Made by a program: the position numbers and the translations under genes
Notes under the pieces: generated by a model
Told to the model about the DNA's origin: nothing
The model's database searches: none
What the model saw: only the letters and a program-made list of their open reading frames with translations
Origin: an uncultured candidatus Brocadiaceae bacterium
GTDB lineage: Bacteria; Planctomycetota; UBA1135; UBA2386
Direction: 5' to 3'
Assembly: GCA_964483245.1 (NCBI GenBank)
Contig: CAZABP010000016.1
Location: 5,344 to 69,343, forward strand
DNA: 64,000 nt
In this document: piece by piece, positions 8,699 through 29,529 of the stretch
Layout: every line of letters starts with the position of its first letter
How positions within the stretch are numbered: position 1 is the first letter of the stretch

Positions 8699-9244
8699 TC
8701 AGGTCCCGCTGATCACGCAACCGACCGGTTCCGTGACCGGCACCGAGACCGGCCGGCCGGCCAGCAGCTCGTCGAGCGCGGCACGCAGATCGCGCGTCCG
8801 GACCACGCGCCGCCGGCGCCCGAGATCCTCCCACGCGTCGTCGATGCGGCCGCGGTAGACGGCCCCGTCGTGCGTCACGACGAACGCCTCCGGCGTCGTC
8901 CGGGCACCGAGGGCACGCACCAGCCGATGGTCGGGGTCGAGCAGGATCGTGCCGGGCAGCTCGTAGGCCGTGGCGTGCTCGCGCGCGCGCGCCGGCGCCA
9001 GCGCCCGGTCGGCGTGCACGACGTAGAGCCGGATGCCGCGTGGTTCGTACTCGGCGGCGAGTGCGCGCAGCTCCGGGGCGTACGAGTTCGCGATCGGACA
9101 GTCGGTCGACACGAACAGGATCAGGTGGGCGCGCGCCGTCGCGACCTGCAGCGGCGCATGCCCGCGGCCGTCGGTATCCGTGACGTGCACCGCCTCGCTG
9201 CACGCAGCGAGCAGCGACAGCGCAGCGAGCCACGGCCTTCGCAT
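8699..9244 (-). CDS. thioredoxin-fold (AhpC/TSA-redoxin-like) lipoprotein
   Basis: Signal peptide with lipobox LLAAC. Redoxin-like LILFVSTDCPIANSY with a single Cys. Its ATG overlaps the stop of the upstream gene (TGATG). Confidence 0.7.
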   Translation of the reverse strand: MRRPWLAALSLLAACSEAVHVTDTDGRGHAPLQVATARAHLILFVSTDCPIANSYAPELRALAAEYEPRGIRLYVVHADRALAPARAREHATAYELPGTILLDPDHRLVRALGARTTPEAFVVTHDGAVYRGRIDDAWEDLGRRRRVVRTRDLRAALDELLAGRPVSVPVTEPVGCVISGT

Positions 9245-15713: not shown

Positions 15714-17113
15714 CGCGGCTCGCGCTGGCGCTGCTGATCCTGCTGCCGCTGGCCGTCCGGGTGTGGAACCTCGATGCGCCGCTGACCGAGCGGCACCAGT
15801 TCCGCCAGAGCCAGACCGCGTTGACGGTGTGGACGTTCCAGCAGCAGGGGATCGACCTGCTCGCTTACGAGACCCCGCTGTTCGGACCGCCGTGGCAGGT
15901 GCCGATGGAGTTTCCGCTGTTCCAGGCGGGCGCGGCCCTGCTCGGTGCGCTCGGGCTGTCGCTGGAGATGGCGTGCCGTGTGGCCGGGCTGCTCGCGTTC
16001 CTGCTCGCGCTGGCAGGTCTCGGTCTCGTGCTGCGCGCATGGAGCGCGACGACGGCGCAGCGGAATGCCGCGCTGCTCGCGCTGTGGGCGATGCCGCTCG
16101 CGATCGTCTGGAGCCGCGCCTGCACGATCGAGTACCTCGCCGCGGCGGCGGCGCTCGGCCAGCTCGCGGTCCTGCTCGCACTCGCGCGTGGGGAGCGGCG
16201 CACCTGGGTGTTGGCCGCCGGCGTGCTCAGCGGCGCGGTCGCCGGGCTCGTCAAGGTCACGACGTTGGTGCCGTATCTCGCCGTCGCTGCGGTCGACCTC
16301 GGGCTGCGCGCGCGCAGCGGAACGCGCATGCCGTGGCTGCGCATCGCGACCGTCGTCGTCGTGCCGGTCGCGGTGGCGCTGCTGTGGACCGCACATGCCG
16401 ACGCGATCAAGGCCGCATCGCCGCAGACCTCCTGGCTCACGTCGACAGCGTTGACGGAGTGGAACCTCGGCACGCTCGCGCAGCGGTTCGACCCGGAGGT
16501 CTGGTGGACGTTGCTGCGGCGGTTCGGCGCGCAGGTGCTGCCGTTCGTGTGGATCCTTCCGGTGTTGGCGTGCGCGCCGCGCGTCGTCGCGCCGCTCGCC
16601 GGGATCCTCGCGGCGTGGCTCGTGCTGACGAACCTGTACGCGACGCACGACTACTACGCCGCCGCGATCACGCCGCTCGCAGCCCTCGCGCTCGGACTCT
16701 CGTGGCCCGGCTGGTGGAGCCGCCTCGCGCCGCGCACGCGCCCATGGATCGTGCTGCTGCTGGTGCTGTCGACGCTCGGCGGCTGGCGCTACGTGCGCAG
16801 CTCGTTGCGCGCAGATCCGGGCGCCGCCTGGCGGCTCGGCCGGATCGCGGCGGAGCACGCACAGCTCGACGACTGGATCCTGGTGCGCGGCTTCGACTGG
16901 GATCCGACGGTGCTGTACGCGGCGCGACGGCGCGGCGTGCTGCTGCGCGAGAACGTCGCCGCGGTGCTGGCTGCCGAGGGCTGGCAGCTCGCGCGCGATC
17001 CGCGTGCACGCGTGCTGGTCACGACGGATCCGGAGGACCCACTGCTCGCGCTGCACGAGGGCGCCCGCCGCGTCGCGACCGACGGCACCGCCACGGTCTG
17101 GGTGCTGCGGTAG
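15710..17113 (+). CDS. polytopic membrane protein, GT-C/ArnT-PMT_2-like putative glycosyltransferase
   Basis: GTG start at 15710 overlaps the RND stop (GTGA). N-terminus LLILLPLAVRVWNLDAP is typical of ArnT-like proteins. More than 10 hydrophobic helices. Confidence 0.6.
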   Translation: MTRLALALLILLPLAVRVWNLDAPLTERHQFRQSQTALTVWTFQQQGIDLLAYETPLFGPPWQVPMEFPLFQAGAALLGALGLSLEMACRVAGLLAFLLALAGLGLVLRAWSATTAQRNAALLALWAMPLAIVWSRACTIEYLAAAAALGQLAVLLALARGERRTWVLAAGVLSGAVAGLVKVTTLVPYLAVAAVDLGLRARSGTRMPWLRIATVVVVPVAVALLWTAHADAIKAASPQTSWLTSTALTEWNLGTLAQRFDPEVWWTLLRRFGAQVLPFVWILPVLACAPRVVAPLAGILAAWLVLTNLYATHDYYAAAITPLAALALGLSWPGWWSRLAPRTRPWIVLLLVLSTLGGWRYVRSSLRADPGAAWRLGRIAAEHAQLDDWILVRGFDWDPTVLYAARRRGVLLRENVAAVLAAEGWQLARDPRARVLVTTDPEDPLLALHEGARRVATDGTATVWVLR

Positions 17114-17144
17114 AAACCGCGCGGCCCGTCCCGATACTCGGCGC

Positions 17145-18500
17145 ATGCTCGGCTCCGGTGGCAGCCCGCTCGCGATGGCGGTGCTCGGCGCGGTCATGGT
17201 CGTGACCTACGTCGCGATCGGGACCGGCAGGCTGCACAAGCTGACCGCGGCGCTGGCCGGTGCGCTCTCGTGCGTCGCGCTCGGGCTCGCGCTCGGTGTG
17301 CTGCCGAGCTACGGGATCGTGCACGAGCTGCTGCAGCGCGACCTCGGCGTGCTCGGTGTACTGGTGGGAACCTCGGTGCTGGTCGACATCGCCGGCAAGT
17401 CCGGTCTGTTCCAGTTCCTCGCGATCCGGATCGCGAAGCTGGCGGGCGGCGACCCACGCGCGCTGTTCGCCGCGATCGTCGGCCTGACCCTGGTGTTCGT
17501 CGCGTTCCTGACGATCGCGCCCGGGACGCTGATCGTCGTCTCGCTGGCGCTGGTGCTGTGCCGCACGCTCGAGCTGGACCCGAAGCCGTATCTGTTCGGG
17601 ATCGCGCTGGCTGCCAACTCCGGCGCGCTGTTCACGTTCGCATCCGGGATCTGCACGCTGATGATCGGCACGGCGGCCGGGATCCCGTACCTGCAGTTCC
17701 TGATGGTGTCCGCGCCGCTCGCGCTGGCGACCGGCGCGATTGCGTTCTTCGTCGTGCGGCGCGTGATGCGCCAGGAGCTCGCCGGCGGCGCGTTGAACGC
17801 GGAGCAGCGGCGCGCGCGGCTCGCGGAGTTCGACGAGTGGGCCGTCGTCAGCGACCGCGCCGTGTTCCGCCGCTGTGCCTGGATCCTCGGCGGGACGATC
17901 GTCGGGTTCGCGGTCGCGCGGCTGGTCGGCGTCGGGCTCGACTACGTCGCGCTCGCAGGGGGCACTGCGGCGCTGCTGTTCTCCGGCTTCGACGCCGAGG
18001 AGGCGGTCAAGAAGGTCAACTGGACCGTGATCCTGTTCTTCGTCGCGCTGTTCGTGATGATCGGCGTCGTCGAGGAGAGCGGTCTGCTCGGCGCATTTGC
18101 GTCCCGCCTGTCGGATTGGTCGGGTGGCAGCACACACCTTGCTCTGGTGTTGCTCGTGCCGTTCGTCGCTGTGACCAGCGGTGTCATGGACAACATCCCG
18201 GTCGCGGCAACGATGATCCCGGTCGTCAAGGGACTCATCGCCAGCGGGCTGCCGGCGGAGCCGCTGTGGTGGGGGCTCGTGTTCAGCGCGAACCTCGGCG
18301 GCAACGGCACGCCGATCGGCAGCATCGCCGGCGTGTTGGCGCTGCACGCGCTCGCAGAGACCACCGGAAAGAAGGTCGGCTGGGGTGAGTTCCTGAAGCT
18401 CGGCGGGCTCGTGCTGCTTCTGCAGCTCGTGCTCACGATGGGCTATCTGCACGTGATGACCACGATCGGCGGGTTCCCCGACCTGCCGCGCACGCCATGA
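17145..18500 (+). CDS. anion/citrate-type permease (ArsB/NhaD/CitMHS superfamily)
   Basis: About 12 TM helices. Start moved to ATG 17145 (MLGSGGSPLAMAVLG). Confidence 0.7.
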   Translation: MLGSGGSPLAMAVLGAVMVVTYVAIGTGRLHKLTAALAGALSCVALGLALGVLPSYGIVHELLQRDLGVLGVLVGTSVLVDIAGKSGLFQFLAIRIAKLAGGDPRALFAAIVGLTLVFVAFLTIAPGTLIVVSLALVLCRTLELDPKPYLFGIALAANSGALFTFASGICTLMIGTAAGIPYLQFLMVSAPLALATGAIAFFVVRRVMRQELAGGALNAEQRRARLAEFDEWAVVSDRAVFRRCAWILGGTIVGFAVARLVGVGLDYVALAGGTAALLFSGFDAEEAVKKVNWTVILFFVALFVMIGVVEESGLLGAFASRLSDWSGGSTHLALVLLVPFVAVTSGVMDNIPVAATMIPVVKGLIASGLPAEPLWWGLVFSANLGGNGTPIGSIAGVLALHALAETTGKKVGWGEFLKLGGLVLLLQLVLTMGYLHVMTTIGGFPDLPRTP

Positions 18501-19318
18501 CCGATCCGGAGCTGGAACGCCAGATGGCGCAGTTCGAAGCGGCGCGCGTCGCGCACGCGGTGGAGCTCAGCGTCGCGCCGCTGCGGCGGATCCTCGTCGT
18601 GCGCGACGGGTCCGACCAGGATGCGACGGCGCAAGCGCTGGCGGCGGCCGCGGCACGTGGCGAGGCAGAGGTCGTGACGCGTGAGTTCGCGGCTGCAGAG
18701 CCGCATGCCGAGATCCTGACCGCGGCGCAGGGGTTCGACCTGCTGGTCGTGCCGTGCCCGTTCCGCGCGGACTACACGCAAGTGGGGCAGGACACTCTGT
18801 CGACAACGCTCGATCTCGTGCTGGCGCGCGGCGCGCAACCGGTCCTGCTCGCGCGCGGGCCGGTTGTTGATGCGATCTCCTGCCTGCGCGCCCCGCTCGT
18901 GCTGCTCGACGTCGAACGGCGGCGCAAGGTGGAGGCGGTCTCGTTGGCGCTGGCGCTCGCGCGCGGCGGCGGCGAGGTGGCGCTGCTGTCGGTCGTGGAT
19001 CCGCACGTGGCGGTCCGCGAGGAGGAGCTGCTCGGGCGGTTCCTGGACCCGGGGGATCTGTCGCCGGAGCGGCTCGAAGGTCTCGCGACGGCGCGCGCGG
19101 CGGCGGTGACCGCCTCGCTCCAGCGGCACGCCGACGAACTGCAGGTGACTCCGCGCGTCAAGTTCCGGATCGGCGACCCGATCGAGCTGGCGCTGGAGGT
19201 CGGGAACCCCCGCGGCGGCGTGTTGGTGGCCGGGCTGTGCCGGGCGCATGGGGATCCGGGGTTCGCCCAGGCCCGGGAGCTCGTGCTGCGCAGCGCGCTC
19301 CCGGTCGCGCTGGTCTGA
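18497..19318 (+). CDS. tandem universal-stress-protein-like domain protein
   Basis: Two USP-like halves (RILVVRDGSDQD..., PLVLLDVERRRK...). ATGA overlap with the permease gene. Confidence 0.6.
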   Translation: MTDPELERQMAQFEAARVAHAVELSVAPLRRILVVRDGSDQDATAQALAAAAARGEAEVVTREFAAAEPHAEILTAAQGFDLLVVPCPFRADYTQVGQDTLSTTLDLVLARGAQPVLLARGPVVDAISCLRAPLVLLDVERRRKVEAVSLALALARGGGEVALLSVVDPHVAVREEELLGRFLDPGDLSPERLEGLATARAAAVTASLQRHADELQVTPRVKFRIGDPIELALEVGNPRGGVLVAGLCRAHGDPGFAQARELVLRSALPVALV

Positions 19319-19415
19319 TTTCCGGCCGGGGCGCGACAGATCCGGGGGGCGGTGCCGTCTGTAGGGCAGCCCGGCGGGAGCCGGGTGACGACCAACCCGA
19401 GAGAGAGCGAGAGAG

Positions 19416-20198
19416 ATGAGAGCTTCGATTCTTCCGATGTTCGCGCTGCTGTGCCTGGCGGCGTCCGCCCAGGAACCTGTTCAACAGGACCAGCGCGTAT
19501 CCGCGCGCATTCAGCAGGCGGAACCGCTGGTGACGCTGCGATTCGAGGGTGGCACGCTCGCACAGTTCGTCGACTCGCTGCGGCAGCAGCGGGAAGGACT
19601 CAACATCCTGGTTCCCGACGGGGCGGAGCGTGTGCAGGTGCCGGCGATGACAGTCAAGGATGCCAGCGTGCCGTCGGTGTTGCAGGCGGTTTGCGATCTC
19701 ACCGAGTCTCGCGATGTGTCGCTCGGCATGAAGTCCTACGGCGGCATCGGGCAGCCGATTTACGCACTGCGGGTGGACTTCCGCGAGCGCCGTGAGGTCA
19801 CGCAACACATCGGGCGCGTGACGGAGCGGCGCGTGCACGTACTGTCGCTGGCGAACCTCGACACGTCGTCCGCATCCGTGTTGTCCGCGATCGAGGGAGC
19901 CTTGCAGGGCGTAGAGAGCGAGCCGCGCCCGACCGTCCGCTATCACGCGAGCACGCAACTCGCGTTCATCGAAGGTACTACGGAGGCGATCTCGGTGGCC
20001 GCGGAAGTCGTCAGCGCGATCCGCGCGACCGACAAGAAATGGATGCAGACGCAGGCGATGAAGTACCCGGCCGGGTACCCGAACCAGCCGATCCAGGTGC
20101 CTGGTCCGCAGGGCGAGGCCCCCGCACGCGAACCGGACGAGGGGAAGGAGCCGGCCGAGCCGCGCAAGCAGGACTCGAAGAAGCAGGGCGCCAAGTAG
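19416..20198 (+). CDS. hypothetical secreted protein with a Lys/Glu/Pro-rich tail
   Basis: Signal peptide MRASILPMFALLCLAASAQE. A purine (GA) tract lies immediately upstream. First gene of a probable operon with the ECF sigma and anti-sigma genes. Confidence 0.6.
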   Translation: MRASILPMFALLCLAASAQEPVQQDQRVSARIQQAEPLVTLRFEGGTLAQFVDSLRQQREGLNILVPDGAERVQVPAMTVKDASVPSVLQAVCDLTESRDVSLGMKSYGGIGQPIYALRVDFRERREVTQHIGRVTERRVHVLSLANLDTSSASVLSAIEGALQGVESEPRPTVRYHASTQLAFIEGTTEAISVAAEVVSAIRATDKKWMQTQAMKYPAGYPNQPIQVPGPQGEAPAREPDEGKEPAEPRKQDSKKQGAK

Positions 20199-20201
20199 CG
20201 A

Positions 20202-20771
20202 TTGCCCGCGACCGTGGCGGATGCGCCCCCTTCCTCGGTCGACCTCGTGCGTCGGATCGCTCGCAGCGATCCGGACGCGTTCGCGCGTTTCTACGACCTC
20301 TGGTTCGACCGCAGCTTCGCGCTGGCTCGCAGCCTCACGCGCGGCGACGAGTCGTTCTGCCTCGACATCGTGCAGGACACGATGCTGCAGGTGATCCGCA
20401 AGCCGCCGTCCCCACAGAGCGAAGCCGCGCTCGCGCAGTGGCTCGGCCGCGCCATCCTGAGCCGCGCGATCGACCGATTGCGCGCCGAACGCCGCCGCCG
20501 CCGGCGCGAGGAACGCGCCGCGCGGGAGGAGCGCTGCGACGCCGCCGATGACGGCGCGTTCGAACAGAACGGCTGGCTCCGCACAGCACTCGCCGAGCTT
20601 CCTGCCGCCGACCGCGCGCTGCTGCACGCACGCTTCCACGACGATCTGACGTTTGCCGAGGCCGGCGCGCGCGCCGGCATGACCGCCAACGCCGCGCACG
20701 GCCGGATCCGCCGCGCGCTGCAACGCCTGCGCCTCGCTGCTCCCGGGAGACCCGACGATGACGACCTCTGA
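20202..20771 (+). CDS. ECF RNA polymerase sigma factor
   Basis: Region 2 (CLDIVQDTMLQVI) and region 4 (LTFAEAGARAGMTANAAHGRIRRAL). The start is ambiguous: TTG 20202 or GTG 20214. Confidence 0.8.
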   Translation: MPATVADAPPSSVDLVRRIARSDPDAFARFYDLWFDRSFALARSLTRGDESFCLDIVQDTMLQVIRKPPSPQSEAALAQWLGRAILSRAIDRLRAERRRRRREERAAREERCDAADDGAFEQNGWLRTALAELPAADRALLHARFHDDLTFAEAGARAGMTANAAHGRIRRALQRLRLAAPGRPDDDDL

Positions 20772-21177
20772 TCCGTTCGCATCCGCACCCGCTGCAATGC
20801 TCTCGCCGGCCGGCACCGCACGCCGCGACCTGCTGCGCGCCGAGCTGACCGGCCTGGTCCGGCGCCGGCGCACGGTGCGCCGCGTGACGCGCACCGCCGC
20901 CGTGTTGCTGTTCTCGGCCGGGATCGGCTGGCTCGCGCTGCGCGAGAAGCCCGCCGTGCTCCCCGCCGTCCCCGGCTACGAGGTCGTCGCCAACGATCCT
21001 TCGGTGTTGCAGCGCCTGTCGATCCCCGAGCGTCCGCTCGCAGCCGAGACGTTCCTCGACGACGACGGTCTGCAGGACTGGCTGCGGCGCGCCGGTCTGC
21101 CGCCCGGCTACGTGCGCACGCCGGAACGGATCGTGTTGATGCCGGAGGTCGCCGAAGCGCTCGCCGAAGCACCGTGA
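20758..21177 (+). CDS. single-pass anti-sigma factor
   Basis: Overlaps the sigma gene by 14 nt. One TM helix, AAVLLFSAGIGWLAL. Its last roughly 115 nt lie inside direct repeat A. Confidence 0.65.
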   Translation: MTTSDPFASAPAAMLSPAGTARRDLLRAELTGLVRRRRTVRRVTRTAAVLLFSAGIGWLALREKPAVLPAVPGYEVVANDPSVLQRLSIPERPLAAETFLDDDGLQDWLRRAGLPPGYVRTPERIVLMPEVAEALAEAP

Positions 21178-21183
21178 AGCGCG
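21063..21183. repeat. direct repeat A (121 bp), 119/121 identical to 25110..25230
   Basis: Aligned by eye. The only mismatches are caggaCtgg/caggaTtgg and gccgaAgcg/gccgaGgcg. Contains the 3' end and stop of the anti-sigma gene. Confidence 0.9.
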
Positions 21184-21230
21184 TGATTGGCAGGCCGCAT
21201 GGCATCAGGTGCGCGGAGAGGGGTCACTCG

Positions 21231-21260
21231 CCGCCACCGCTCGAGCGGTGCTCGTGGCGG
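21231..21260. terminator. nested GC-rich hairpin between convergent genes (possible bidirectional terminator)
   Basis: CCGCCAC ... GTGGCGG outer stem encloses the palindrome CGCTCGAGCG. There is no U-tract. Confidence 0.3.
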
Positions 21261-21262
21261 TA

Positions 21263-22924
21263 CTACTGGATCGTGACCGCGAGTGCGCGCGTGGTGACGC
21301 CGTACGGGCCGACCGCGTCCTGCCCGAAGACCAGCCATTGCGCGTAGAACGTCGCGCCGCGCAGGCGCGGGTCGTTGGGGATCGTTGTTTCGAACCGCGA
21401 CCAGCCCTTGTGGCTGATGCCCTGCGCCTGCCGGACGAACTGTGCGTCGATCGAGGTGCGCAGCGTGCAGCCCGGCATGCCGAAGGCGGTGAGGTCGAGC
21501 GGGAGCGGGGTGCCGTTCCAGATGGTCGAGGAGGAGCCGAGTACGAGTTGTGCGGAGGTGCCCGGGACGACGCGGGACAAGTTGATCGCGAACGGCTTGC
21601 CGAGTTCCGGCGTGAAGCTGGTGCCGATGCGCGGGATCACGCCTGCGCGCGTCGCGCATCCGGTGCCGAGCGTGGTGACGCCGACCGGCGCGCCTGAGTA
21701 GGCGCGGACGCGGTTGACCTTGCGCACAGGATCCCAGAAGCCGGGGATCACGAAGTCGGGGAACTCGTCGCCGTCGAGATCGCCGGCAGCGTAACCGAAA
21801 TAGGATTGAAGATTCGAATCGACGACAGACCACAGGAGCGACTGGTCGCGACCGGAATGGATGAAGGACTCCACGCCGAACCCACCGACGAACAGGTCAT
21901 CGTGAGCGTCGCCGTCGATGTCGCCAACCCGCGCCAGCCAGTCGCCGAAGCGGCGCTCCGGCGGCAACCTTTGAAACCGGAACAACTCGCGGCCGTCCGG
22001 TCCACCGAAGCCGTAGACCCGGTACCGGGTAGGGACGACGACACTGCCGTGATCGCTGGCTGCAAAGTCGTCGAATCCATCGGCGTTGAGGTCGCCTGCG
22101 GCGCACCAGCCCAAAGCGAATGCTCCAGTCGGTTCCGGGGGATAGACGCGAAAATGCTCCTGGTGAGTCCGTCCGGAGTAGAAGCGCGGGACGTCTGGGC
22201 CTCGCAACGGGTGAAGACCGAACGGTCGGATCAGGTAGTCAGGGGTTCCGTCGCCGTTCACATCTCCTGCCGGCGCTGCCCAGCCGAAGCCATGGTACGG
22301 GACCTCCCCATAGTGGTCTGCGATCCTCAGGCCCGCTCGCAGCGACACGATGCTCACTCTCCCGAGATAGAGATTGGGAGGAGTCGAGCCGTAGGAGTGG
22401 TCTCCGAACGAGAGCTCGGTGATGCCGTCACGATCCAGATCCCCGACTGCGTCGACGCGACCTGTCCAGGATGTGTTCGCCCAACGCAGGATCGGCGCTC
22501 GCTTGGCGCCGGACCAGATCGTGTGGATCGCGTAGTTGGGTCCGTGCGTGATCGTGAACCAGTCGGGCACGGCGTCCAGATCGACGTCGCCCAGCGCAAG
22601 CGTCCAACCGAGGTTCTCGTTGGCGTAGGTTCCACGAAGCTCGAACAGCTGCTGTCCCGTCCGACCCGAGTAGACGTGGATGCGCCCCGAATCCACCGGC
22701 GCGCCGACCGGCTCACGCTCCGAGACTGCCAGCTCGGTCGCGCCGTCGCGATCGAGGTCCCCGATCATGGTGATCGATTCGCCGAACCGATCGTCCCCGC
22801 CTGGCCGCGGCGTCCCGCTCCACTCGTGGATCAAGCGTTGCGCCGGAAGCACGGAGGCGAGCAGAAGCGCGACCGCTGCTCCGTGGCGCATCAGGCGAAG
22901 CCCAGCGCTGACCGACTCGACCAT
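21263..22924 (-). CDS. secreted FG-GAP (integrin-alpha-like) beta-propeller protein with an unnamed C-terminal domain
   Basis: Signal peptide. Repeated GDLDRDG / GDVNGDG / GDLNADG / GDIDGDAHDD / GDLDGDEFPD Ca-binding loops. C-terminal 130 aa is homologous to the C-terminus of the Kelch protein at 27346..29529. Confidence 0.8.
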   Translation of the reverse strand: MVESVSAGLRLMRHGAAVALLLASVLPAQRLIHEWSGTPRPGGDDRFGESITMIGDLDRDGATELAVSEREPVGAPVDSGRIHVYSGRTGQQLFELRGTYANENLGWTLALGDVDLDAVPDWFTITHGPNYAIHTIWSGAKRAPILRWANTSWTGRVDAVGDLDRDGITELSFGDHSYGSTPPNLYLGRVSIVSLRAGLRIADHYGEVPYHGFGWAAPAGDVNGDGTPDYLIRPFGLHPLRGPDVPRFYSGRTHQEHFRVYPPEPTGAFALGWCAAGDLNADGFDDFAASDHGSVVVPTRYRVYGFGGPDGRELFRFQRLPPERRFGDWLARVGDIDGDAHDDLFVGGFGVESFIHSGRDQSLLWSVVDSNLQSYFGYAAGDLDGDEFPDFVIPGFWDPVRKVNRVRAYSGAPVGVTTLGTGCATRAGVIPRIGTSFTPELGKPFAINLSRVVPGTSAQLVLGSSSTIWNGTPLPLDLTAFGMPGCTLRTSIDAQFVRQAQGISHKGWSRFETTIPNDPRLRGATFYAQWLVFGQDAVGPYGVTTRALAVTIQ

Positions 22925-22925
22925 G

Positions 22926-24746
22926 TCACATCACCTGCACGAACGCTGCCACGCTCGGGAATCTCGTATTCACGCCGCCCCACGTGTTCTTCGTCACGAC
23001 GAACAGCATGTAGTAGCCCGGTGGCGCGATATTCCTTCCACCCTGCGCGATCGCGGGGAGCGGCTGCAGCGTGAGCTGGTTGCCGGAAGCTGCTTGTACC
23101 GGGAGGCGGACCACCTTCTGATCCCAGTCGAAGTGGTGGGTCACCGACGCGCACCGGATCAATGTCGCGAATTCGATCTCCGTCGCCGGATTCTGGGCGC
23201 CTGCGAGCGCGATCGTCAACGTCGGGATCGCAGCGCCGTAGTTGAGCACGGCTGGCGGATTCACGAGCTGGGGGCGGGCAACGGCCCAGCGCAGGTAGTC
23301 CGGGAGGAAGATCTCGGCGTCCGTGTGGATCAGCGCGTTAGGGGGCAGAGTGGTCTTGTAGCCGCCGGCCAGCAGCACGCGGCCATCGGGCAGCAACACG
23401 GCTACGGTGTGGTAAAGCCGTGGCGAATCGTGCGGCTCCAGCAGCTGCCATCCGGCCTGAGCATTCAGGAGATCCAGTCGTTCAGGCTCGTAGACCGGCT
23501 GCGGAGCCACTTCTGGCGGATTGCCTGTCGCTTTGGCAAAGGGAGCGAATTGGTTCTCGCTTCCCCCGAAGACCACCACGCTCATGTCCGGCAGGATCGT
23601 GGCATTGGCGAAGAGCCGGCGCTTGCTCAGCGTCGACCACCCGGCCGGTCGCGTCCAAGTTGACTGCGTGTTGCTCGGATCTGTCATCTCCCAGGCGGTG
23701 TTCTCCGCTACACGACTCGGCGGAGCTTTCCTGTACCAGAGATTCGAGTCCCAGCCGCCGATCACGACGACGCGGTCGGTGCTGGGTGACTGGCCCACGG
23801 TCCATGGCCAGAGGAACGCCGTTGGATACACCAGATTCACGAGCTGGCTGCTGCTGTCCTGCAGCGTCGATGGGTGAGCTTGCCAAGTCCATGTACTCGG
23901 TGCTCCCGCGGAGACGTTGACGAACGCCGAAGGGCAGTAGTCGCGGTTGACCGTGCCGTTGTAGGCGCCCCAAGTTGCGACTGAGCAGAACACGTAGCCA
24001 TTCGAGAGCAGGTGCAGCAGCGGGTAGAAGTGGAACCCGAGGAGCGGCGGGGTCTTGCCCAGCCCGAGCACGGCGTCGCCACTCGGCATCCCGATCCACG
24101 TCCAGCTCGCCTTGTCGAAGACCTGGTGTTCGTCGGCTCGGTAGAAGACTGGCTCCAGCTGCCCGGTCCGGTACGGCCCGCAGGCCGCTGAGTTCCACGG
24201 TGCAGTACCTCCTCCCGCCAGGAACGCACGGCCGTCGGGCAGCGCAATCACGGAGGGGTAGTAGTGCCCCACGTCCTGTCCGGGGTTCGGCAGGTGCAGT
24301 AGCTCTGGAGTCTGCTGCCAAAGCAGCGAGTCAGGGAAGAACACGTACGACCAGTTCGGCTCCGTCTGGTCGCACTGTGAGTTCCGATCACCGCCGGCGA
24401 GGATGAGGTCGCCATCCTTGTCCCAGGTGTGGCCGGCGCAGAACTGGTTGTCGAGATGGTGGCCCGCGTTGGCGAGCTCAAGCGTGTGCGGTGCCGCCGG
24501 GTCCCAGAGCCACACGGTCTCGGTGGTTGCGTGGGTACGGAAGACGAGAACCTTCCCTTGGTGCGGCCCCGGCTTGCCGATCAGGGCGGCGTGCGCGATC
24601 TCCCAACCGTTCGGCAGGTTGGGCGACCAGTTGTAGGGCCCCTCCCAGCCGTCAGGGTTCCAGCCGATCTGCGCGGTGAGCGGTGCGAAACCAACGAGTA
24701 CGAACGACGCGAGCGCGACGAGCGACGAGCGACGAGCGACGAGCAA
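22926..24746 (-). CDS. galactose-oxidase/glyoxal-oxidase-like radical copper oxidase (Glyoxal_oxid_N plus DUF1929-like); start uncertain, possibly phase-variable
   Basis: Matches to galactose oxidase active-site contexts: NQFCAGH (Cys), HYYPSVIALPDGRAFLAGG (Tyr), RLYHTVAVLLPDGRVLLAGG (Tyr-His), SVTHHFDWDQ (His). C-terminal GYYMLFVV. The in-frame TTG at 24746 has no SD. The SD+ATG at 24771 is out of frame (see findings). Confidence 0.7.
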   Translation of the reverse strand: MLVARRSSLVALASFVLVGFAPLTAQIGWNPDGWEGPYNWSPNLPNGWEIAHAALIGKPGPHQGKVLVFRTHATTETVWLWDPAAPHTLELANAGHHLDNQFCAGHTWDKDGDLILAGGDRNSQCDQTEPNWSYVFFPDSLLWQQTPELLHLPNPGQDVGHYYPSVIALPDGRAFLAGGGTAPWNSAACGPYRTGQLEPVFYRADEHQVFDKASWTWIGMPSGDAVLGLGKTPPLLGFHFYPLLHLLSNGYVFCSVATWGAYNGTVNRDYCPSAFVNVSAGAPSTWTWQAHPSTLQDSSSQLVNLVYPTAFLWPWTVGQSPSTDRVVVIGGWDSNLWYRKAPPSRVAENTAWEMTDPSNTQSTWTRPAGWSTLSKRRLFANATILPDMSVVVFGGSENQFAPFAKATGNPPEVAPQPVYEPERLDLLNAQAGWQLLEPHDSPRLYHTVAVLLPDGRVLLAGGYKTTLPPNALIHTDAEIFLPDYLRWAVARPQLVNPPAVLNYGAAIPTLTIALAGAQNPATEIEFATLIRCASVTHHFDWDQKVVRLPVQAASGNQLTLQPLPAIAQGGRNIAPPGYYMLFVVTKNTWGGVNTRFPSVAAFVQVM

Positions 24747-24756
24747 CGAGCAACGA
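24715..24756. repeat. tandem heptanucleotide repeat, 6 units (plus strand 4x GCGACGA then 2x GCAACGA)
   Basis: Read directly from the sequence. Lies inside the signal-peptide coding region of the oxidase gene. Confidence 0.95.
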
Positions 24757-24779
24757 GATGAACGAACCCATGCGGTTGT

Positions 24780-24785
24780 CTCCTC
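24780..24785 (-). promoter_or_regulatory. Shine-Dalgarno GAGGAG, 8 nt upstream of ATG 24771-24769
   Basis: Minus-strand sequence is GAGGAGACAACCGCATG. Confidence 0.5.
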
Positions 24786-24868
24786 GGTATGGGCCACCGC
24801 GCAACTTAGCGTGCGTGGAGCGAGTCGGTCAACGGGGACAGGGATGCGCGCGAGCGCCTGGTCCATCC

Positions 24869-25034
24869 CTAGAAGTCGTTTCACCAAGCCTCCGCGGCTG
24901 CGGCCAGCCCCCGCACCCGATAGCGGCGTCGCGAGATCTGTGGCGAATCCATCGATTCGCCTGCGATCTCGCTCCTTGCACTCGGCCGCGCTGGCTCGGC
25001 CTCGCCTGCGAAGCATTCGTGAAACGACTTCTAG
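24869..25034. mobile_element. MITE-like non-autonomous element with perfect 16-bp terminal inverted repeats
   Basis: CTAGAAGTCGTTTCAC (24869-24884) is the exact reverse complement of GTGAAACGACTTCTAG (25019-25034). The interior carries nested hairpins, GCGAGATC..GGCGAATC CATC GATTCGCC..GATCTCGC. No ORF inside. Confidence 0.55.
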
Positions 25035-25224
25035 CGGTTGCCATTGTGCGCTGGCATCGGCTGGCTCGCGTTGCGCGCAGAGCCCGCAGCCCTGCCGGTT
25101 GTGCCGGGCCGACGGTCTGCAGGATTGGCTGCGGCGCGCCGGTCTGCCGCCCGGCTACGTGCGCACGCCGGAACGGATCGTGTTGATGCCGGAGGTCGCC
25201 GAGGCGCTCGCCGAAGCACCGTGA
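25035..25224 (+). pseudogene. decayed partial copy of the anti-sigma factor gene (TM end plus C-terminus, internal deletion)
   Basis: 25050-25109 resembles 20915-20975 (shared block ATCGGCTGGCTCGCG, roughly 70% overall). About 90 nt are then missing. 25110-25224 is near-identical to the anti-sigma 3' end. Confidence 0.6.
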
Positions 25225-25230
25225 AGCGCG
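25110..25230. repeat. direct repeat B (121 bp), partner of 21063..21183
   Basis: See repeat A. On the minus strand it contains the last 25 codons and stop of the 7-TM gene. Confidence 0.9.
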
Positions 25231-25928
25231 AGCATCCGCGCCACGAGCAGATGTCCGAACAGCGCCGCCTGCACCAACAGCGCCGGTAGCCAGACGAACG
25301 GCGCCTGCGCGACCCAGGTGTTCGGCGGCTCGGTGTGGAACACGCGCAGCGGCGTCGGCATCGACAACACCGCGATCGACACGATGACCACCAGCAGCGT
25401 CAGCCCGAGCAGGTTCCAGGCGCGCACGAGCCAGAGCGGTAACCGCCCGCCGCGCGCCAGCGCGACGACGTACAGCGCGAGCGCCGTGATCCCGGTCAGC
25501 ACGTCGTAGTTGCCGGCGACCCAAGTCATCTGCGGCGGCACGAACCCTTCGCGCCAGCCTTCGAACAGCAGCACCTCGACCAGGATCCGGAACGACTGGT
25601 AGCCGATCGCCCAGGTCCACGGCAGCCCCTGCGCCAGCCGCGTCCCGAACCGCGAGCGCGCCAGGTGGATCGTGCCGCCGACCGACATCACGAGCAGCAG
25701 CAGCATCGGCGGCGGCATCGTGCCGAATGCGAGATGGCCGCGTGCGGCCGCGAAGTACGTCACTGCCATCCACAGCGCCGCGACGAGCAACGTCCCGGCG
25801 ACCCAGCGGCGTGTCGTCGCCGGAGCTTCGCCGATCCCGCGGCCGGCGCGCGCGACCGCCATGCCGAGCGCGAGCACGAGCCCGACGCACAACGCCGTGA
25901 ACGTCGTCGTGAACAGGGGCGATGGCAT
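25155..25928 (-). CDS. hypothetical 7-TM integral membrane protein
   Basis: Start moved to ATG 25928 (MPSPLFTTTFTAL), which overlaps the stop of the upstream OMP gene (TGATG). About seven hydrophobic helices. Confidence 0.7.
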   Translation of the reverse strand: MPSPLFTTTFTALCVGLVLALGMAVARAGRGIGEAPATTRRWVAGTLLVAALWMAVTYFAAARGHLAFGTMPPPMLLLLVMSVGGTIHLARSRFGTRLAQGLPWTWAIGYQSFRILVEVLLFEGWREGFVPPQMTWVAGNYDVLTGITALALYVVALARGGRLPLWLVRAWNLLGLTLLVVIVSIAVLSMPTPLRVFHTEPPNTWVAQAPFVWLPALLVQAALFGHLLVARMLALHGASASASATSGINTIRSGVRT

Positions 25929-26563
25929 CAGAACGTGACCTTCCCGCCGAGCGTCAGCTGACCGATGTGAGCCAGCGTGCCGTCGGCATCGCCGGCGAAG
26001 ATCGCACTGCCGCCGAGCTCGAGCATGAAGCCGTCGGCGACCTGCAGCTCGAGCCCGACCCGCACCATGCCGGCGACGCCGGTGTCGTCTGGGAACGCGA
26101 CCGGCATGTCGAGCCACGCTGCGCCGATGCCGGCACCGATCACGCCGAACAGCGGGAGCGCGGGATCATCGAAGCCGCCGCGGAACTGCACGTCGGCCAG
26201 CAGCAGATCCAGCTCGGCGGTGCCCCCGGTCAGCTGCTCGCCGAACCGCGCGCCTTCGTACAACAGGCCGACGTTGATCACCCCGTTGCCGATGCCGGCG
26301 CGGACACCGGCGCCGTAACCGCTTTCGAAGCGTGCGCTGCTGATCCGGCTCGACTGCTCAGCGATGCTCGCGTACGGGACCCCGAACAGATCGAACTGGA
26401 AGCGATCGAAGCGATCACTGCGCAAGCTGCGCTCCGCGGCGGCCGGCTCGACCGGGGACTCCGGTCGCGGTGGCGCGGCTGCGGAGAACGCTGCGCAGCA
26501 GCACAGCGGCACCACTGCCAGCAGGGTCCACGCGGCGAGCAGCGGTTGCCGGACGTGGCGCAT
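25928..26563 (-). CDS. small outer-membrane beta-barrel protein (OmpW/OprF-N-like), paralog 2
   Basis: Signal peptide, alternating beta-strand pattern, and C-terminal GGKVTF ending in Phe. Start at ATG 26563 overlaps the stop of paralog 1. Confidence 0.7.
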   Translation of the reverse strand: MRHVRQPLLAAWTLLAVVPLCCCAAFSAAAPPRPESPVEPAAAERSLRSDRFDRFQFDLFGVPYASIAEQSSRISSARFESGYGAGVRAGIGNGVINVGLLYEGARFGEQLTGGTAELDLLLADVQFRGGFDDPALPLFGVIGAGIGAAWLDMPVAFPDDTGVAGMVRVGLELQVADGFMLELGGSAIFAGDADGTLAHIGQLTLGGKVTF

Positions 26564-27225
26564 CAGAACATCAGCTTGCCGCCGAGCGTGATCTGCGTGC
26601 CGTAGCCGAGCGTGTTGCCGACCTCGCCGGCACCGAACGCACCGACCGTCAGGTCGAGCAGCAGCGTCTCGCTGAGCTCGTATTCGACGCCGGCGCGCAT
26701 CAGGACGGCGCCTCCCTTGTCGTTGTCGAAGTCGCCCGGCAGCTCGATCCACGCACCGCCGACGCCGAGATCCCCGATGAAGTGCACCCGCTGCTCACGC
26801 TCGATCAGCGGCACGCGCCAGGCGAAGTCGAGCAGCAGGAACTCGAGCTGCGCCTCGCCGCCGGTGCGCTGCTCGTCGTGCCAGGTCGCCTGATACAGCA
26901 GGCCGACGTTGAACTTCCGGTCGCCCATGCCGAAGCGGACGCCATAGCCGGCGCCGGTCTCGACTTCCGCCTTGCCGCCGAACTGCCCCGAGCCGCGTGA
27001 CTCCGAGTCGACCCACAGCGCCGGGACGGCGTACAGATCGAGCTGCACGCGATCGAACGTGTCGGCCGGGATCGGGCGCTGCAGTGCGTGTGGGAGTTCC
27101 GGCGTCTCGGCCGGCTCGGGCCATGGTGCAGCATCGGTCACGACCGCTGCAGGCCTCGGGTGCGGCGCCGGCGCGGCCGCGCATGCCGCGAGCAGCGGGA
27201 GCAGCAGATACGGCGCGCGACGCAT
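26563..27225 (-). CDS. small outer-membrane beta-barrel lipoprotein, paralog 1
   Basis: Lipobox LLAAC and C-terminal GGKLMF. Clear similarity to the downstream paralog (FDRVQLDLYAVP vs FDRFQFDLFGVP). Confidence 0.7.
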   Translation of the reverse strand: MRRAPYLLLPLLAACAAAPAPHPRPAAVVTDAAPWPEPAETPELPHALQRPIPADTFDRVQLDLYAVPALWVDSESRGSGQFGGKAEVETGAGYGVRFGMGDRKFNVGLLYQATWHDEQRTGGEAQLEFLLLDFAWRVPLIEREQRVHFIGDLGVGGAWIELPGDFDNDKGGAVLMRAGVEYELSETLLLDLTVGAFGAGEVGNTLGYGTQITLGGKLMF

Positions 27226-27345
27226 GGCGGGCCGGGCACGCTAGCGCGGGCCGGACCTCCGTGTCCATCTGCAGGTCCGCGGGATACGACCGCTGCCCCA
27301 TTTCCCGGCTAGCATGCCGCCGGTTCGTTCGAGGAAGGCCCGGAC

Positions 27346-29529
27346 ATGCTGCAGTCGGTTCGTGTCTCGTCAGCGGCAGGTGTTGTGCTCGCGATCTGGA
27401 TCACAGACGGCAGCGCGGTAGCGCAGGCCGTCTTGCCGGATCCGTGGACCCTGACGCGAGAACTTCAAGCGCCCGCGAATGCGGCAGCGGCTTGCGACAC
27501 CGTGCGAGGAAAGGTGGTGCTGTTCGGCGGACGACCCTGGGTCGCGTACTCCTCGGACACCTGGCAGTGGGATGGGATGCGTTGGACGTTGCACTCGACC
27601 AGCGGTGGTCCGAGTGCGCGGATGCAGCACGCGATGGCCTACGACGCCGCGCGTCGTGTCGTCGTGTTGTTCGGTGGCATGGACAGCAATGGGTACGCGC
27701 TCGGCACCTGGCTGTTCGACGGGGTGGCCTGGCAACGCGCACCGGTGGCAAAGGAACCAGGTCCTCGCCTGAACGCGGCCATGGCGTTCGACGCAGCACG
27801 CGGCGTGACGATCCTGTTCGGCGGCGACCGCGGAACACTGTTGGCGGACACCTGGCAGTGGGATGGAGCGCGATGGACGGAGCTTCCAGTGAATGGACCG
27901 CGCTCCCGTCACAGCCATGGCTTGGCCTACGACCCGCGGCGCCAACGGATCGTCTTGCATGGCGGATACCGCGAGGGGACGCATCCGCTGCAGGACACCT
28001 GGGAGTGGGATGGCCGGCAATGGTTGGCGACGCAGCCGGCGAATCTGCCACCGGGAATGCACGGTGCTGCGTCGACGTACGATCCGGGTCTTGGTCGCTT
28101 CGTGCTGTTCGGCGCCGAGGACGAGACGACCAGCTTCTGGCAGTGGGATGGTCGCGACTGGAGTCGAGTTCCCTATGTGCCGGTGCATCCGCGCGCCAGG
28201 CGAGGGGGTCTGTTGATCGCGGATACAGCCCACGACAAGTTGATGCTGGTCGGTGGCGCCGGTGTCGGCGAGGAAGCGAACATCAACTATCGCGGGACAT
28301 GGCTCTGGGACGGGGTCCGTTGGGTCGAGCAGCAGCCTGACCGAGGGCTGCGCGGTGGCATCGTGGTCTACGATTCGTCGCGGCAGCGGCTCGTCGCCCT
28401 CGACATCCGAGGTGCGCATTGGGAGTGGGACGGGTTCGCCTGGCAGCGAGATCAACGCTGGTTGCAAGGTCCCCAGCGAATGCTCGCCGCCATGGCGTTC
28501 GATGGGTCACGGAACGAGATCGTCCTGTTCGGGGGTGCCGATGGAACGCAGCGAACTGCCGACACGTTCACCTGGTCGAGCTCGAGCGGGTGGAGACTGC
28601 GGCAGCCGGCCAGCTCCCCACCCGCGCTGCAGGCGCATTCGATGACGTATGACCGGGCTCGGCAGCGCGTGCTGCTGTTCGGCGAGGCGGGCCTGTGGGA
28701 ATGGGACGGTCAGACGTGGCATCCGCGGCGGGCTCCGGGCGCCGAACCGGAGCCGCGCTGGGGCGCGGGGTTTGCGTACGACGATGCTCGGAGAGTCTCG
28801 GTCCTGTTCGGCGGCGATGGGTGGAGCGGCGAGCTCAACGACACCTGGTGTTGGGATGGGTCGGTTTGGCGTCGTCAGCCGTCGCAGGTCGAACCGATCG
28901 GGCGGCGCAATCCTGTGTTCGCGTACGACGCTGCGCGCCGGCGCATCGTGATGTTCGGCGGGTCTCGCGGTTGGTGGACGAGCTGGTCGATGGCGGACAC
29001 ATGGGAATGGAACGGTGCGAGTTGGGGGTTCGTGAGCCGTATGTCCGAGGGTGCGGCCGGATCCGGGGTCTATGTCGAGCACCTGGGCGCCATGGTGCAC
29101 CTGGATTTCCGCGGGCTCACGTGGGCCTACGCGCGCGACGCCAGGATCGAGTCCTCACCGCTGGGGTCAGGCTGCGCGGGCGGAGGCACGGTACCGCGCC
29201 TGGGCAGCAACCTGCCGTACGTCGGCAACCCACGATTCGCGCTGGAACTCGTCGAAGCGCGGCCGCGCGCTGCTGGGCTTTTCATCCTGTCGCTGGGCAT
29301 CGACCCACGCCCGGTCGGCGGCGAGTGTGTCCTCTACCTGCGTGATCCGTTGCTCCCGTTCGGCGTGACGACGACTGCTGCTGGTTACTCGGAGCTCGTG
29401 ATGCCGATCCCACTCGAGCTGCAGCTGCGTGGCATGCGGGTCCATGCGCAGGCGTTCATCGACGATCCGGGGCCGATGGCGCCGGGCTTCGCAGCGAGTG
29501 CCGCGCGCAAACTCGTGATCGGCGACTGA
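27346..29529 (+). CDS. secreted Kelch-type beta-propeller protein (about 12 or more blades) with an unnamed C-terminal domain
   Basis: GAGGAAGG SD and a signal peptide. Many repeats of the form VLFGG...DTWEWDG..W. Confidence 0.8.
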   Translation: MLQSVRVSSAAGVVLAIWITDGSAVAQAVLPDPWTLTRELQAPANAAAACDTVRGKVVLFGGRPWVAYSSDTWQWDGMRWTLHSTSGGPSARMQHAMAYDAARRVVVLFGGMDSNGYALGTWLFDGVAWQRAPVAKEPGPRLNAAMAFDAARGVTILFGGDRGTLLADTWQWDGARWTELPVNGPRSRHSHGLAYDPRRQRIVLHGGYREGTHPLQDTWEWDGRQWLATQPANLPPGMHGAASTYDPGLGRFVLFGAEDETTSFWQWDGRDWSRVPYVPVHPRARRGGLLIADTAHDKLMLVGGAGVGEEANINYRGTWLWDGVRWVEQQPDRGLRGGIVVYDSSRQRLVALDIRGAHWEWDGFAWQRDQRWLQGPQRMLAAMAFDGSRNEIVLFGGADGTQRTADTFTWSSSSGWRLRQPASSPPALQAHSMTYDRARQRVLLFGEAGLWEWDGQTWHPRRAPGAEPEPRWGAGFAYDDARRVSVLFGGDGWSGELNDTWCWDGSVWRRQPSQVEPIGRRNPVFAYDAARRRIVMFGGSRGWWTSWSMADTWEWNGASWGFVSRMSEGAAGSGVYVEHLGAMVHLDFRGLTWAYARDARIESSPLGSGCAGGGTVPRLGSNLPYVGNPRFALELVEARPRAAGLFILSLGIDPRPVGGECVLYLRDPLLPFGVTTTAAGYSELVMPIPLELQLRGMRVHAQAFIDDPGPMAPGFAASAARKLVIGD

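Follow-up and report, generated by a model that had tools for sequence, protein, structure and literature searches.

A 3.9-kb gene cassette between duplicated, overlapping gene ends in a candidatus Brocadiaceae bacterium: a probable recent insertion anchored by anti-sigma gene similarity

The DNA analyzed here, called the window throughout, is a stretch of 64,000 nt from an uncultured candidatus Brocadiaceae bacterium. Within it, two convergent resident genes, one for an anti-sigma-like protein and the other for a 7-TM membrane protein, lie on either side of a segment that carries two genes of its own and is bounded by direct repeats of 121 nt. Three metagenome contigs of relatives (L001, L004 and L005) lack this segment, which is referred to below as the insert. 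The features of the locus are the following.

20202..20771, plus strand: resident gene for an ECF-type sigma-70 factor of 189 aa (Pfam Sigma70_r2/r4, NCBIfam sigma70-ECF), syntenic in L004 and L005
20758..21177, plus strand: resident, intact gene for an anti-sigma-like single-pass membrane protein of 139 aa, its first 14 nt shared with the sigma gene
21063..21183, no strand: direct repeat copy A, comprising the 3'-terminal part of the anti-sigma-like gene and the next 6 nt, equivalent to the single copy in L001, L004 and L005
21184..25109, no strand: insert of 3,926 nt, missing from L001, L004 and L005, with the lowest G+C in the window
21184..21262, minus strand: spacer of 79 nt beyond the FG-GAP stop codon, containing a G+C-rich stem but no U tract
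21263..22924, minus strand: second operon gene, for an FG-GAP repeat protein of 553 aa with an N-terminal signal-like segment (Pfam FG-GAP and FG-GAP_3)
22926..~24771, minus strand: first operon gene, copper-radical-oxidase-like (galactose oxidase / GlxA / DUF1929 type), start ambiguous
24715..24757, no strand: tandem array of the seven-base unit GCGACGA (6.1 copies) in the part of the oxidase gene that encodes the signal peptide
24869..25034, no strand: imperfect palindrome of 166 nt with 37-nt arms and perfect 16-nt CTAG-ended termini, with the oxidase promoter region on one side and the anti-sigma relic on the other
25037..25109, plus strand: relic of a foreign anti-sigma homologue, codons 50-73 (membrane-helix region), lacking the 5' part and joining copy B out of frame
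25110..25230, no strand: direct repeat copy B, in which the 7-TM gene (minus strand) has its final 24 codons and stop
25155..25928, minus strand: resident, intact gene for a 7-TM membrane protein of 257 aa, with 195 homologues and no Pfam family

The 139-aa protein has no match in Pfam or NCBIfam, and its position and topology suggest the anti-sigma role. Its family comprises 146 representative small proteins that share a conserved C-terminal motif, encoded by the 121 nt of the repeat; the gene has no paralogue in the window. The C-terminal tail of the 7-TM protein that the repeat encodes is not conserved among its family, and 7-TM homologues linked to such a sigma/anti-sigma pair were not seen in distant genomes.

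The first gene of the insert encodes a protein that scores above the cut-off for Pfam GO-like_E_set and resembles galactose oxidases in the PDB (E 3e-19). Its match to the NCBIfam GlxA equivalog is partial, and the score of 75 is so far below the cut-off of 800 that the protein is not GlxA itself. In an alignment to galactose oxidase 9g8h it retains FC.G, Y, YH and TH, which we take to be the copper-site ligand positions (Cys, Tyr, Tyr-His, His). With a Kelch-type propeller, a C-terminal E-set (DUF1929) and a copper site of the Cys-Tyr, Tyr-His and His kind, the predicted product has the makeup of a copper radical oxidase. A ribosome-binding site and ATG at 24771 are one base out of frame with the long oxidase ORF, for which an in-frame TTG is present at 24746; removal of one unit of the GCGACGA repeat would bring the ATG into frame.

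In L002 the oxidase gene is likewise succeeded by a full-length FG-GAP homologue (33% identity, E 7e-61), as it is in L006-L007. The pair, in the order oxidase then FG-GAP, occurs in three other bacterial lineages, each time in a different genomic context, and no sigma/anti-sigma genes adjoin these distant pairs. The insert thus carries a conserved operon of two genes, for a putative secreted copper-radical-oxidase-like enzyme and its FG-GAP partner. The nearest homologue of the oxidase, P0122, encoded on a 31-kb NCBI contig, is 75% identical overall, with 97 of 99 residues identical at the C-terminus and 61-85% identity elsewhere, a pattern that points to a mosaic relationship between the two proteins. 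A scan of genome contigs with the oxidase alignment returned relatives of 32-40% only.

The G+C content of the insert is 65.8%, compared with a window mean of 70.8%, and is below that of all 522 non-overlapping stretches of the same size (minimum 66.9%). Third codon positions behave similarly, with a GC3 of 81% in the insert against 84-93% in the neighbouring genes. An earlier reading of the sequence, made by inspection, had noted lower G+C inside the cassette and proposed a comparison of composition with the flanks, and the difference is found by both measures. The low G+C, the occurrence of the gene pair in unrelated contexts elsewhere and the mosaic oxidase together argue for a foreign origin of the insert.

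The ends of the insert bear no terminal inverted repeats: a local alignment between the left end and the reverse-complemented right end reaches a score of 11, where shuffled sequences average 10. The same reading had found no integrase, and this holds, since the insert carries only the FG-GAP and oxidase-like genes and neither contains an integrase, transposase or recombinase domain in Pfam or NCBIfam; the syntenic flanks are likewise free of recombinase genes. The spacer at the left end has no similarity to anything in the window or the fetched loci. Its stem, at about 21227-21255, had been taken for a hairpin terminator, an assignment that is not supported: besides the missing U tract, the fold has a z-score of only -0.56 and a terminator scan does not flag it. 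The palindrome near the right end does fold strongly (z -5.9), but its description as a MITE was not borne out. No second copy was found in the window (16-nt terminus, up to 3 mismatches) or in the fetched loci (14-nt core), nor one with exact ends (both termini plus gap) in JGI metagenomes, and Rfam gave no match over 19000-27500 at E up to 0.1. Apart from the 73-nt piece at 25037-25109, no relics of the sigma, anti-sigma or 7-TM genes are present at the insert ends.

The two direct repeats are identical at 119 of 121 positions, as originally described, and a 60-nt repeat probe detects only these two copies in the 64-kb window (0 in 100 shuffles). Copy A consists of the last 37 codons and stop of the anti-sigma-like gene and extends just beyond it, and with the 24 codons and stop of the 7-TM gene in copy B the repeat does correspond to the overlapping 3' ends of two convergent genes. 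The mismatches (C at 21078 against T at 25125, and A at 21156 against G at 25203) are synonymous in both reading frames. The sequence-only reading regarded the near-identity as selective and offered three causes. Coding constraint from the 7-TM gene can be discarded, because 45 of the 121 nt in copy B lie outside that gene and contain one of the differences; moreover, the third codon positions of the two overlapping strands coincide, so the overlap adds little constraint. The remaining two, a recent event or gene conversion, are supported by derived states common to both copies. At 21069, 21087 and 21096, copies A and B have T/G/T where L001 and L005 have C/C/A and L004 has C/C/C. All three changes are synonymous and none occurs in any of the three relatives, arguing that both copies look like resident sequence. 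The copies are separated from each other by 2 sites, against 4 between either copy and L001.

The uninterrupted sites in L001, L005 and L004 have flanks about 89-96% identical to those of the window. In all three contigs the anti-sigma-like and 7-TM genes are convergent and overlap by 70 nt, just as had been predicted (about 70 bp) for a cassette-free relative. The search for an empty site by synteny, proposed at the same time, gives junctions exactly at the repeat boundaries, and the two matches of each contig to the window overlap by exactly 121 nt. Positions 1-1319 of L001 correspond to window 26428-25110 and positions 1199-1724 to window 21183-20658; for L004, positions 1-8605 correspond to window 12581-21183 and positions 8485-10616 to window 25110-27244; L005 shows the same pattern. 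Interpretation of the cassette as an insertion is thus supported.

The comparison at the locus covers three lineages. Divergence there is about 10% between L004 and either L001 or the window, and 4-5% between the window and L001. Because the outgroup-like L004 and the nearest relatives, L001 and L005, are all empty, a gain requires one event and a loss requires two. This argument is weakened by the fact that the lineages recombine freely: divergence between the window and L004 is 0-1% over 12581-14830, compared with about 10% in other parts, and recombination could likewise have spread an empty allele. Among 5.8 billion proteins, no other occupied site was found except for one 75%-identical oxidase.

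The 73-nt stretch beside copy B provides a further clue to the history of the insert. It matches 20904-20976 of the anti-sigma-like gene at 53 of 73 positions (73%; best of 2000 shuffles, 43), and the next 86 nt of that gene (20977-21062) are absent between the stretch and copy B. The differences fall 2/5/13 by codon position (13 of 20 third, P=0.004), and 16 of 24 residues are kept. Where all four full-length genes agree, third positions still account for 8 of the 12 differences (P=0.019). This bias implies divergence under coding constraint and rules out decay in place as the origin of the stretch, which also falls outside the clade formed by the anti-sigma genes of the window, L001, L005 and L004. 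The stretch is a relic of a functional, foreign anti-sigma homologue. A diverged anti-sigma stretch with a deletion had been noticed at this position; its existence is confirmed, but it does not belong to the duplication that gave the repeats and comes from a different gene.

The locus is probably best explained by a recent horizontal insertion that was anchored by anti-sigma gene similarity and involved no dedicated recombinase. A foreign segment of 3.9 kb with a two-gene operon would have entered the 70-nt overlap of the resident anti-sigma-like and 7-TM genes, with duplication of 121 nt of resident sequence, so that the anti-sigma-like gene now ends in the left copy and the 7-TM gene in the right, and both are whole. 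A stretch from a diverged relative of this anti-sigma gene would have come in with the foreign DNA, and because that stretch lies in the insert, pairing between the foreign and resident genes is the presumed anchor. The 121 nt, with the conserved C-terminal motif of the family encoded in them, would have served as the patch of homology. Integration could have occurred by a single crossover with a circularized fragment (Campbell-type insertion-duplication) or by recombination that was homologous at one end only. Either route would involve at least one illegitimate junction, at the boundary between 25109 and 25110, where 86 nt are missing and the frame is broken; no microhomology is present there. 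A simple Campbell crossover is expected to leave hybrid repeats of donor and resident sequence, whereas both copies carry the three derived states of the window lineage. Since they look resident rather than hybrid, either gene conversion or an inter-sister event must be added to the model, or the donor copy was already resident-like.

Insertion anchored in this way predicts a donor in which the cassette adjoins a full-length anti-sigma homologue containing LPLCAGIGWLALRAEPAALPVVPG. Scans of genome contigs and metagenomes did not find a donor molecule with this arrangement. With the two 121-nt repeats in place, ordinary homologous recombination could remove the insert and would leave exactly the empty site.

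An unlikely possibility is that the cassette is a recombinase-less mobile module spreading as a non-replicating circle. Host recombination between the 121-nt repeats would excise it, and the same patch would allow re-entry into the empty sites of other cells; the foreign anti-sigma relic would then be the footprint of an earlier host. If so, RecA-dependent exchange of the cassette between species would use a conserved gene overlap as its landing pad.

Recombination between the repeats is also central to a quite improbable alternative, in which the cassette is old, already carried by the common ancestor, and has disappeared on two or more occasions, with gene conversion keeping the 121-nt copies alike. 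Such losses would yield exactly the empty sites seen, the population recombines heavily, and the diverged 73-nt stretch could suggest age. However, that stretch diverged under coding constraint rather than by decay in place, and both the outgroup-like L004 and the nearest relatives are empty. The exceptionally low G+C of the insert and the near absence of other occupied sites, one oxidase aside, also weigh against an ancestral cassette.

Equally doubtful is the view that the insert is the remnant of a site-specific integrative element, or one mobilized in trans, with the 121-nt repeats as attachment sites and the recombinase lost or located elsewhere, by analogy with cis-mobilizable elements and the microcin H47 island. 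The direct repeats restoring the end of the target gene, the empty site in relatives and the foreign composition would all fit, and the H47 island, whose imperfect repeats measure 144-148 bp and which lacks an integrase of its own, is capable of excision and integration (PMC3191183). Against this, neither the insert nor its syntenic flanks include a recombinase gene, the relic is target-gene sequence from upstream of the repeat that an attachment site does not need, and synonymous variants of the resident lineage occur in both repeat copies.

An assembly artefact, in which the assembly joined a separate molecule or strain with the same 121 nt to the chromosome at the repeat, is very unlikely. 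The window seems to come from a metagenome-derived contig and the repeats are longer than common k-mer sizes, but the two differences between copies A and B each sit in their own flank context, and a 4-kb circle with no replication gene is an implausible replicon. In addition, the independent Logan contig L009 (reads SRR18162977), which is 100% identical to the window, breaks at 25126, one base before the first A/B difference it reaches, at 25125. This is the graph branch expected if the reads hold both copies, and so is compatible with a true duplication, although it does not prove the linkage. Transposition can be given almost no credence: target duplications by transposases are usually 2-14 nt, far short of 121 nt, and the palindrome, despite its perfect termini and its location at the boundary between cassette and relic, is internal to the insert and single-copy in the searches above, while the insert ends lack inverted repeats.

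Most documented bacterial gene gains come with an integrase, a transposase or homology flanking both sides. The gain proposed here would have involved none of these, and the states before and after it are both at hand. Although the insertion falls where both strands are coding, the 121-nt duplication has kept both genes whole. The piece of foreign target gene kept in the incoming DNA points to capture of foreign DNA guided by similarity, and the locus would thus offer a case from nature, and one that can be dated, of homology-anchored illegitimate integration, for which most of the knowledge comes from transformation in the laboratory. The presence/absence polymorphism of the oxidase/FG-GAP cassette in close relatives also offers a handle on its function.

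Among known systems, integrase-borne islands and prophages at gene 3' ends resemble this locus in that repeats keep the target gene intact, relatives are empty and composition is deviant. The present insert differs in having no integrase, in preserving two opposite-strand genes at once and in carrying a target-gene piece from upstream of the repeat. The microcin H47 island of E. coli is also small, with unusually long direct repeats and no integrase of its own. Its repeats of 148 and 144 bp are 76% identical and its mobility has been shown, including in recA-deficient cells (PMC3191183), whereas the repeats described here are 98% identical and duplicate overlapping coding ends.

Homology-facilitated illegitimate recombination, as outlined in PMC5361080 with reference to de Vries & Wackernagel 2002, Prudhomme et al. 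2002 and Meier & Wackernagel 2003, is a further comparable process. In such events, one similar stretch anchors the foreign DNA and the other end is joined illegitimately, with no mobility enzyme needed, and similar models explain orphan gene fragments beside new modules in T6SS and Rhs loci. Classically, the recipient loses the DNA that lies between anchor and illegitimate joint. At this locus there is a duplication of 121 nt in place of such a loss, so that two target copies or repair synthesis would be needed; transformation-triggered inter-chromatid integration is a process that gives duplications (PMC3784515).

A structural parallel is Campbell-type insertion-duplication, as with suicide vectors carrying a 3'-terminal gene fragment. 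In both cases direct repeats of a target gene segment flank the insert, and the gene is whole on the left but missing its 5' end on the right (here the fragment starts at codon 50), where resident downstream DNA follows. The repeat at this locus ends 6 nt past the stop codon, where homology between donor and recipient would be expected to end, and the incoming DNA has its own homologue of the target segment (25037-25109). The differences are that this appears to be a natural event with a foreign fragment only partly similar to its target, that an out-of-frame gap of 86 nt lies between the foreign part and the repeat, and that both 121-nt copies look resident rather than hybrid.

The arrangement at 21063-25230 is well supported as a recent, recombinase-free gain of genes in which an unusually long stretch of the target was duplicated, leaving two overlapping genes intact. 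The duplicated segments, 21063-21183 (copy A) and 25110-25230 (copy B), align without gaps and are identical at 119 of 121 positions; a 60-nt probe from the repeat matches only these two copies in the 64-kb window and nothing in shuffled sequences. The sequence-only reading, which proposed a two-gene cassette between near-identical 121-bp direct repeats, was correct on this point. The features of the locus are as follows.

Features of the locus (window coordinates)
20202-20771: ECF sigma factor gene (Pfam Sigma70_r2/r4, NCBIfam sigma70-ECF)
20758-21177, plus strand: anti-sigma-like gene, a 139-aa ORF with its 3' end in copy A
21184-25109: insert, holding the next five features in order
First part of the insert: spacer, 79 nt
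21263-22924, minus strand: FG-GAP repeat gene
22926 to about 24771, minus strand: galactose-oxidase/GlxA-like gene, E-set domain above the Pfam cut-off
24869-25034: imperfect palindrome, 166 nt, CTAG at both tips, predicted hairpin z -5.9
25037-25109: anti-sigma-like fragment (the relic), 73 nt, right end of the insert
25155-25928, minus strand: seven-helix membrane protein (7-TM) gene, 257 aa, last 24 codons and stop from copy B

The 139-aa ORF starts 14 nt inside the 3' end of the sigma factor gene. Its product matches no model in Pfam or NCBIfam, and is a putative anti-sigma factor judging only from position, topology and family size. The family, which counts 146 representatives when clustered at 50%, is marked by a single membrane helix and by two conserved motifs, LS.aG.aRR at the N-terminal end and DD..L...L..aG.p.G..R at the C-terminal end. 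The repeat takes in the 3' portion of the gene, stops 6 nt past its stop codon, and encodes this C-terminal motif. Copy B also supplies the stop and final codons of the 7-TM gene, as had been noted, the count being 24 codons rather than 25. No Pfam family covers the 7-TM product. Its homologues number at least 195, from Nannocystaceae, Planctomycetota and many metagenomes, and an alignment of 25 members shows 26 invariant positions. The C-terminal tail varies across the family, and so the 24 repeat-encoded residues are probably dispensable. Upstream of the 7-TM gene, two tandem paralogous genes of 211 and 220 aa (25928-27225, minus strand; 39% identical) adjoin each other and the 7-TM gene via shared start/stop bases; their products have signal-like N-termini and a C-terminal F, and are possibly small outer-membrane barrels.

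A cassette-free arrangement, anticipated earlier as an ancestor with a gene overlap of about 70 bp, is found in relatives. The queries were the 7-TM protein, which led to contig L001, and the anti-sigma-like protein, which led to contigs L004 and L005. The one close 7-TM relative found (P0001, 98% identity) is encoded on L001, a 1,724-nt Logan contig in which the 7-TM gene and a 139-aa gene converge and share 70 nt; the contig also includes the end of a gene matching the window's sigma gene. L001 1-1319 corresponds to window 26428-25110 (96.4%) and L001 1199-1724 to window 21183-20658 (94.9%), the two matches having exactly the 121 nt in common. L005, from another sequencing run, is 98.5% identical to L001. 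L004 (10.7 kb) is fully syntenic (CitMHS, two hypothetical genes, sigma, anti-sigma-like, 7-TM and two further genes) and diverges by 6-11% from the window and by about 10% from L001; in L004 and L005 too, the matches to the window's two flanks overlap by exactly 121 nt. Three independent assemblies from at least two lineages thus have the cassette-free arrangement. Within the antisense overlap of 70 nt (21108-21177 / 25155-25224), the third codon positions of both genes coincide, and a substitution at these sites can be silent for both genes; both differences between copies A and B, and most of those between the window and L004, are of this kind.

The insert genes carry no recombinase or transposase domain in Pfam or NCBIfam, in keeping with the reported lack of an integrase. 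Lower G+C inside had also been claimed correctly: the insert has 65.8%, and none of the 522 stretches of equal size elsewhere in the window goes as low (minimum 66.9%, mean 70.8%). Codon usage, proposed as a further check, agrees in part, with a GC3 of 81% for the two insert genes against 84-93% for neighbours. A Kelch gene close by has only 78%, and so composition is suggestive of foreign origin rather than decisive alone. Two other labels did not survive. The "hairpin terminator" is a G+C-rich stem with no U tract and unremarkable fold energy, and the palindrome called a MITE, which may be one, is single-copy in the window, the fetched loci and JGI metagenomes. The palindrome adjoins the relic's first base at one end and, at its other end, the promoter region of the oxidase gene.

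Aligned to galactose oxidase structures, the oxidase-like protein retains Cys, Tyr, Tyr-His and His at the positions of the radical-copper site. At the 5' end of its gene (24715-24771, minus strand), a good ribosome-binding site (GAGGAG) accompanies an ATG at 24771 that is one base off the long ORF's frame; a 7-nt repeat of six units lies between this ATG and the mature oxidase, and five or eight units would restore the frame. The offset could reflect slipped-strand on/off switching, recent inactivation, use of an in-frame TTG at 24746, or an assembly error. The annotated start (652-aa product) lies inside the left arm of the palindrome and implies a 46-residue extension absent from homologues, which have short plain signal peptides; the nearest homologue, P0122, was called without an N-terminus. 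P0122 (NCBI, 31-kb contig) is identical at 97 of the last 99 residues (22926-23225) and 61-85% identical elsewhere, which indicates a recombination mosaic with a breakpoint inside this cassette gene. The pairing of the oxidase-like and FG-GAP genes is conserved: at least four lineages have it, among unrelated neighbours. An oxidase-like gene directly followed by its FG-GAP partner (525-570 aa) occurs at three further places: a Planctomycetota MAG (L002 1778-5763; FG-GAP 33% identical over full length, E 7e-61), a JGI contig, where the partner is uncharacterised, and Logan contigs L006-L008 (L006 2312-5907). The neighbours differ at each, and none of the three loci has a sigma/anti-sigma gene nearby.

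The diverged stretch noted earlier to the left of copy B is real, and its character can be specified. The relic matches 20904-20976 at 53 of 73 positions (best by chance 43/73 in 2000 dinucleotide shuffles), and the next 86 nt of the gene (20977-21062) have no counterpart before copy B, to which the relic is joined out of frame. In the anti-sigma frame (25038-25109 against 20905-20976), the 20 differences fall 2/5/13 on the three codon positions (P=0.004 against an even spread), and 16 of 24 residues are the same. Where four full-length genes agree, the relic differs 1/3/8 (P=0.019); it matches them at 51-54 of 72 sites, and they match one another at 60-72. Because it lies outside this tight group and shows third-position bias, the relic must have diverged as a working gene elsewhere; the third-position excess rules out a copy decayed in place. 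The right-hand "repeat" is then a mosaic of a foreign membrane-helix segment and resident 3' sequence, which also rules out 7-TM coding needs, one earlier explanation for the near-identity, as what preserved the 121 nt. Of copy B, 45 of the 121 nt lie outside the 7-TM gene and carry one difference, where about 12 are expected at 27% divergence. The other suggested causes, a recent event or gene conversion, still stand.

Divergence at the locus is 4-5% between the window and L001/L005 and about 10% between L004 and both; with L004 as the outlier, gain costs one event and loss two. The repeats point the same way. At 21069, 21087 and 21096, all synonymous third positions, copies A and B have T, G and T, L001 and L005 have C, C and A, and L004 has C, C and C; A and B differ at two sites, and each differs from L001 at four. 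These shared states suggest either that the duplication copied sequence already bearing window-lineage substitutions or that conversion homogenised the copies. An old cassette lost twice is disfavoured by the extra event, by these shared variants, by the history of the relic and by the deviant composition of the insert. Some caution is in order, because window 12581-14830 is 0-1% divergent from L004 1-2250 (the next 8 kb differ by about 10%), apparently through recent homologous exchange or a sweep between otherwise distinct lineages, and alleles can thus move between backgrounds.

In insertion-duplication, a molecule that bears the 3'-terminal portion of a gene undergoes recombination with that gene in the chromosome, which yields one complete and one 5'-truncated copy, and the repeat ends where donor-recipient likeness ends. 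The present locus has that signature, since the repeat is the gene's 3' part and, ahead of copy B, there is a foreign homologue of this gene that lacks its 5' end and agrees in orientation and order. Because they encode the family's conserved C-terminal motif, the 121 nt are plausible as a patch of similarity between diverged homologues. A foreign molecule carrying a 3'-terminal anti-sigma-like piece could therefore have recombined with the resident gene with no dedicated recombinase. Both copies look resident, and this, together with the out-of-frame 86-nt gap, would require an added step: either gene conversion from one copy to the other, with the gap as its boundary, or an event that drew on two sister copies of the target and made an illegitimate joint at 25109|25110. 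The reading we adopt is homology-anchored integration with no dedicated recombinase; we do not rank these sub-paths. Ordinary recombination can act on the repeats, which lie 4 kb apart, and is predicted to release a circle of 4,047 nt and so re-create the empty site.

A site-specific element whose recombinase was lost or acts in trans has a precedent in the microcin H47 island, with 144-148-bp repeats and no integrase (PMC3191183), but is improbable here: no observation requires it, and it sits badly with the relic and with the resident variants that both repeats carry. Two observations make an assembly artefact unlikely: the differences specific to each copy, and an independent Logan contig (L009, SRR18162977) that is 100% identical to window 30727-25126 and ends one base short of the A/B difference at 25125, where the assembly graph would branch if the reads contain both copies. 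Both the length of the duplication and the insert ends, which do not match each other as inverted repeats, contradict transposition.

On the reading of homology-anchored integration, the event is a variation on processes already known, and not an element of a new kind. Its sister-copy path resembles one-sided-homology integration, so far as that is represented by the references cited in PMC5361080, and likewise transformation-driven inter-chromatid integration (PMC3784515).
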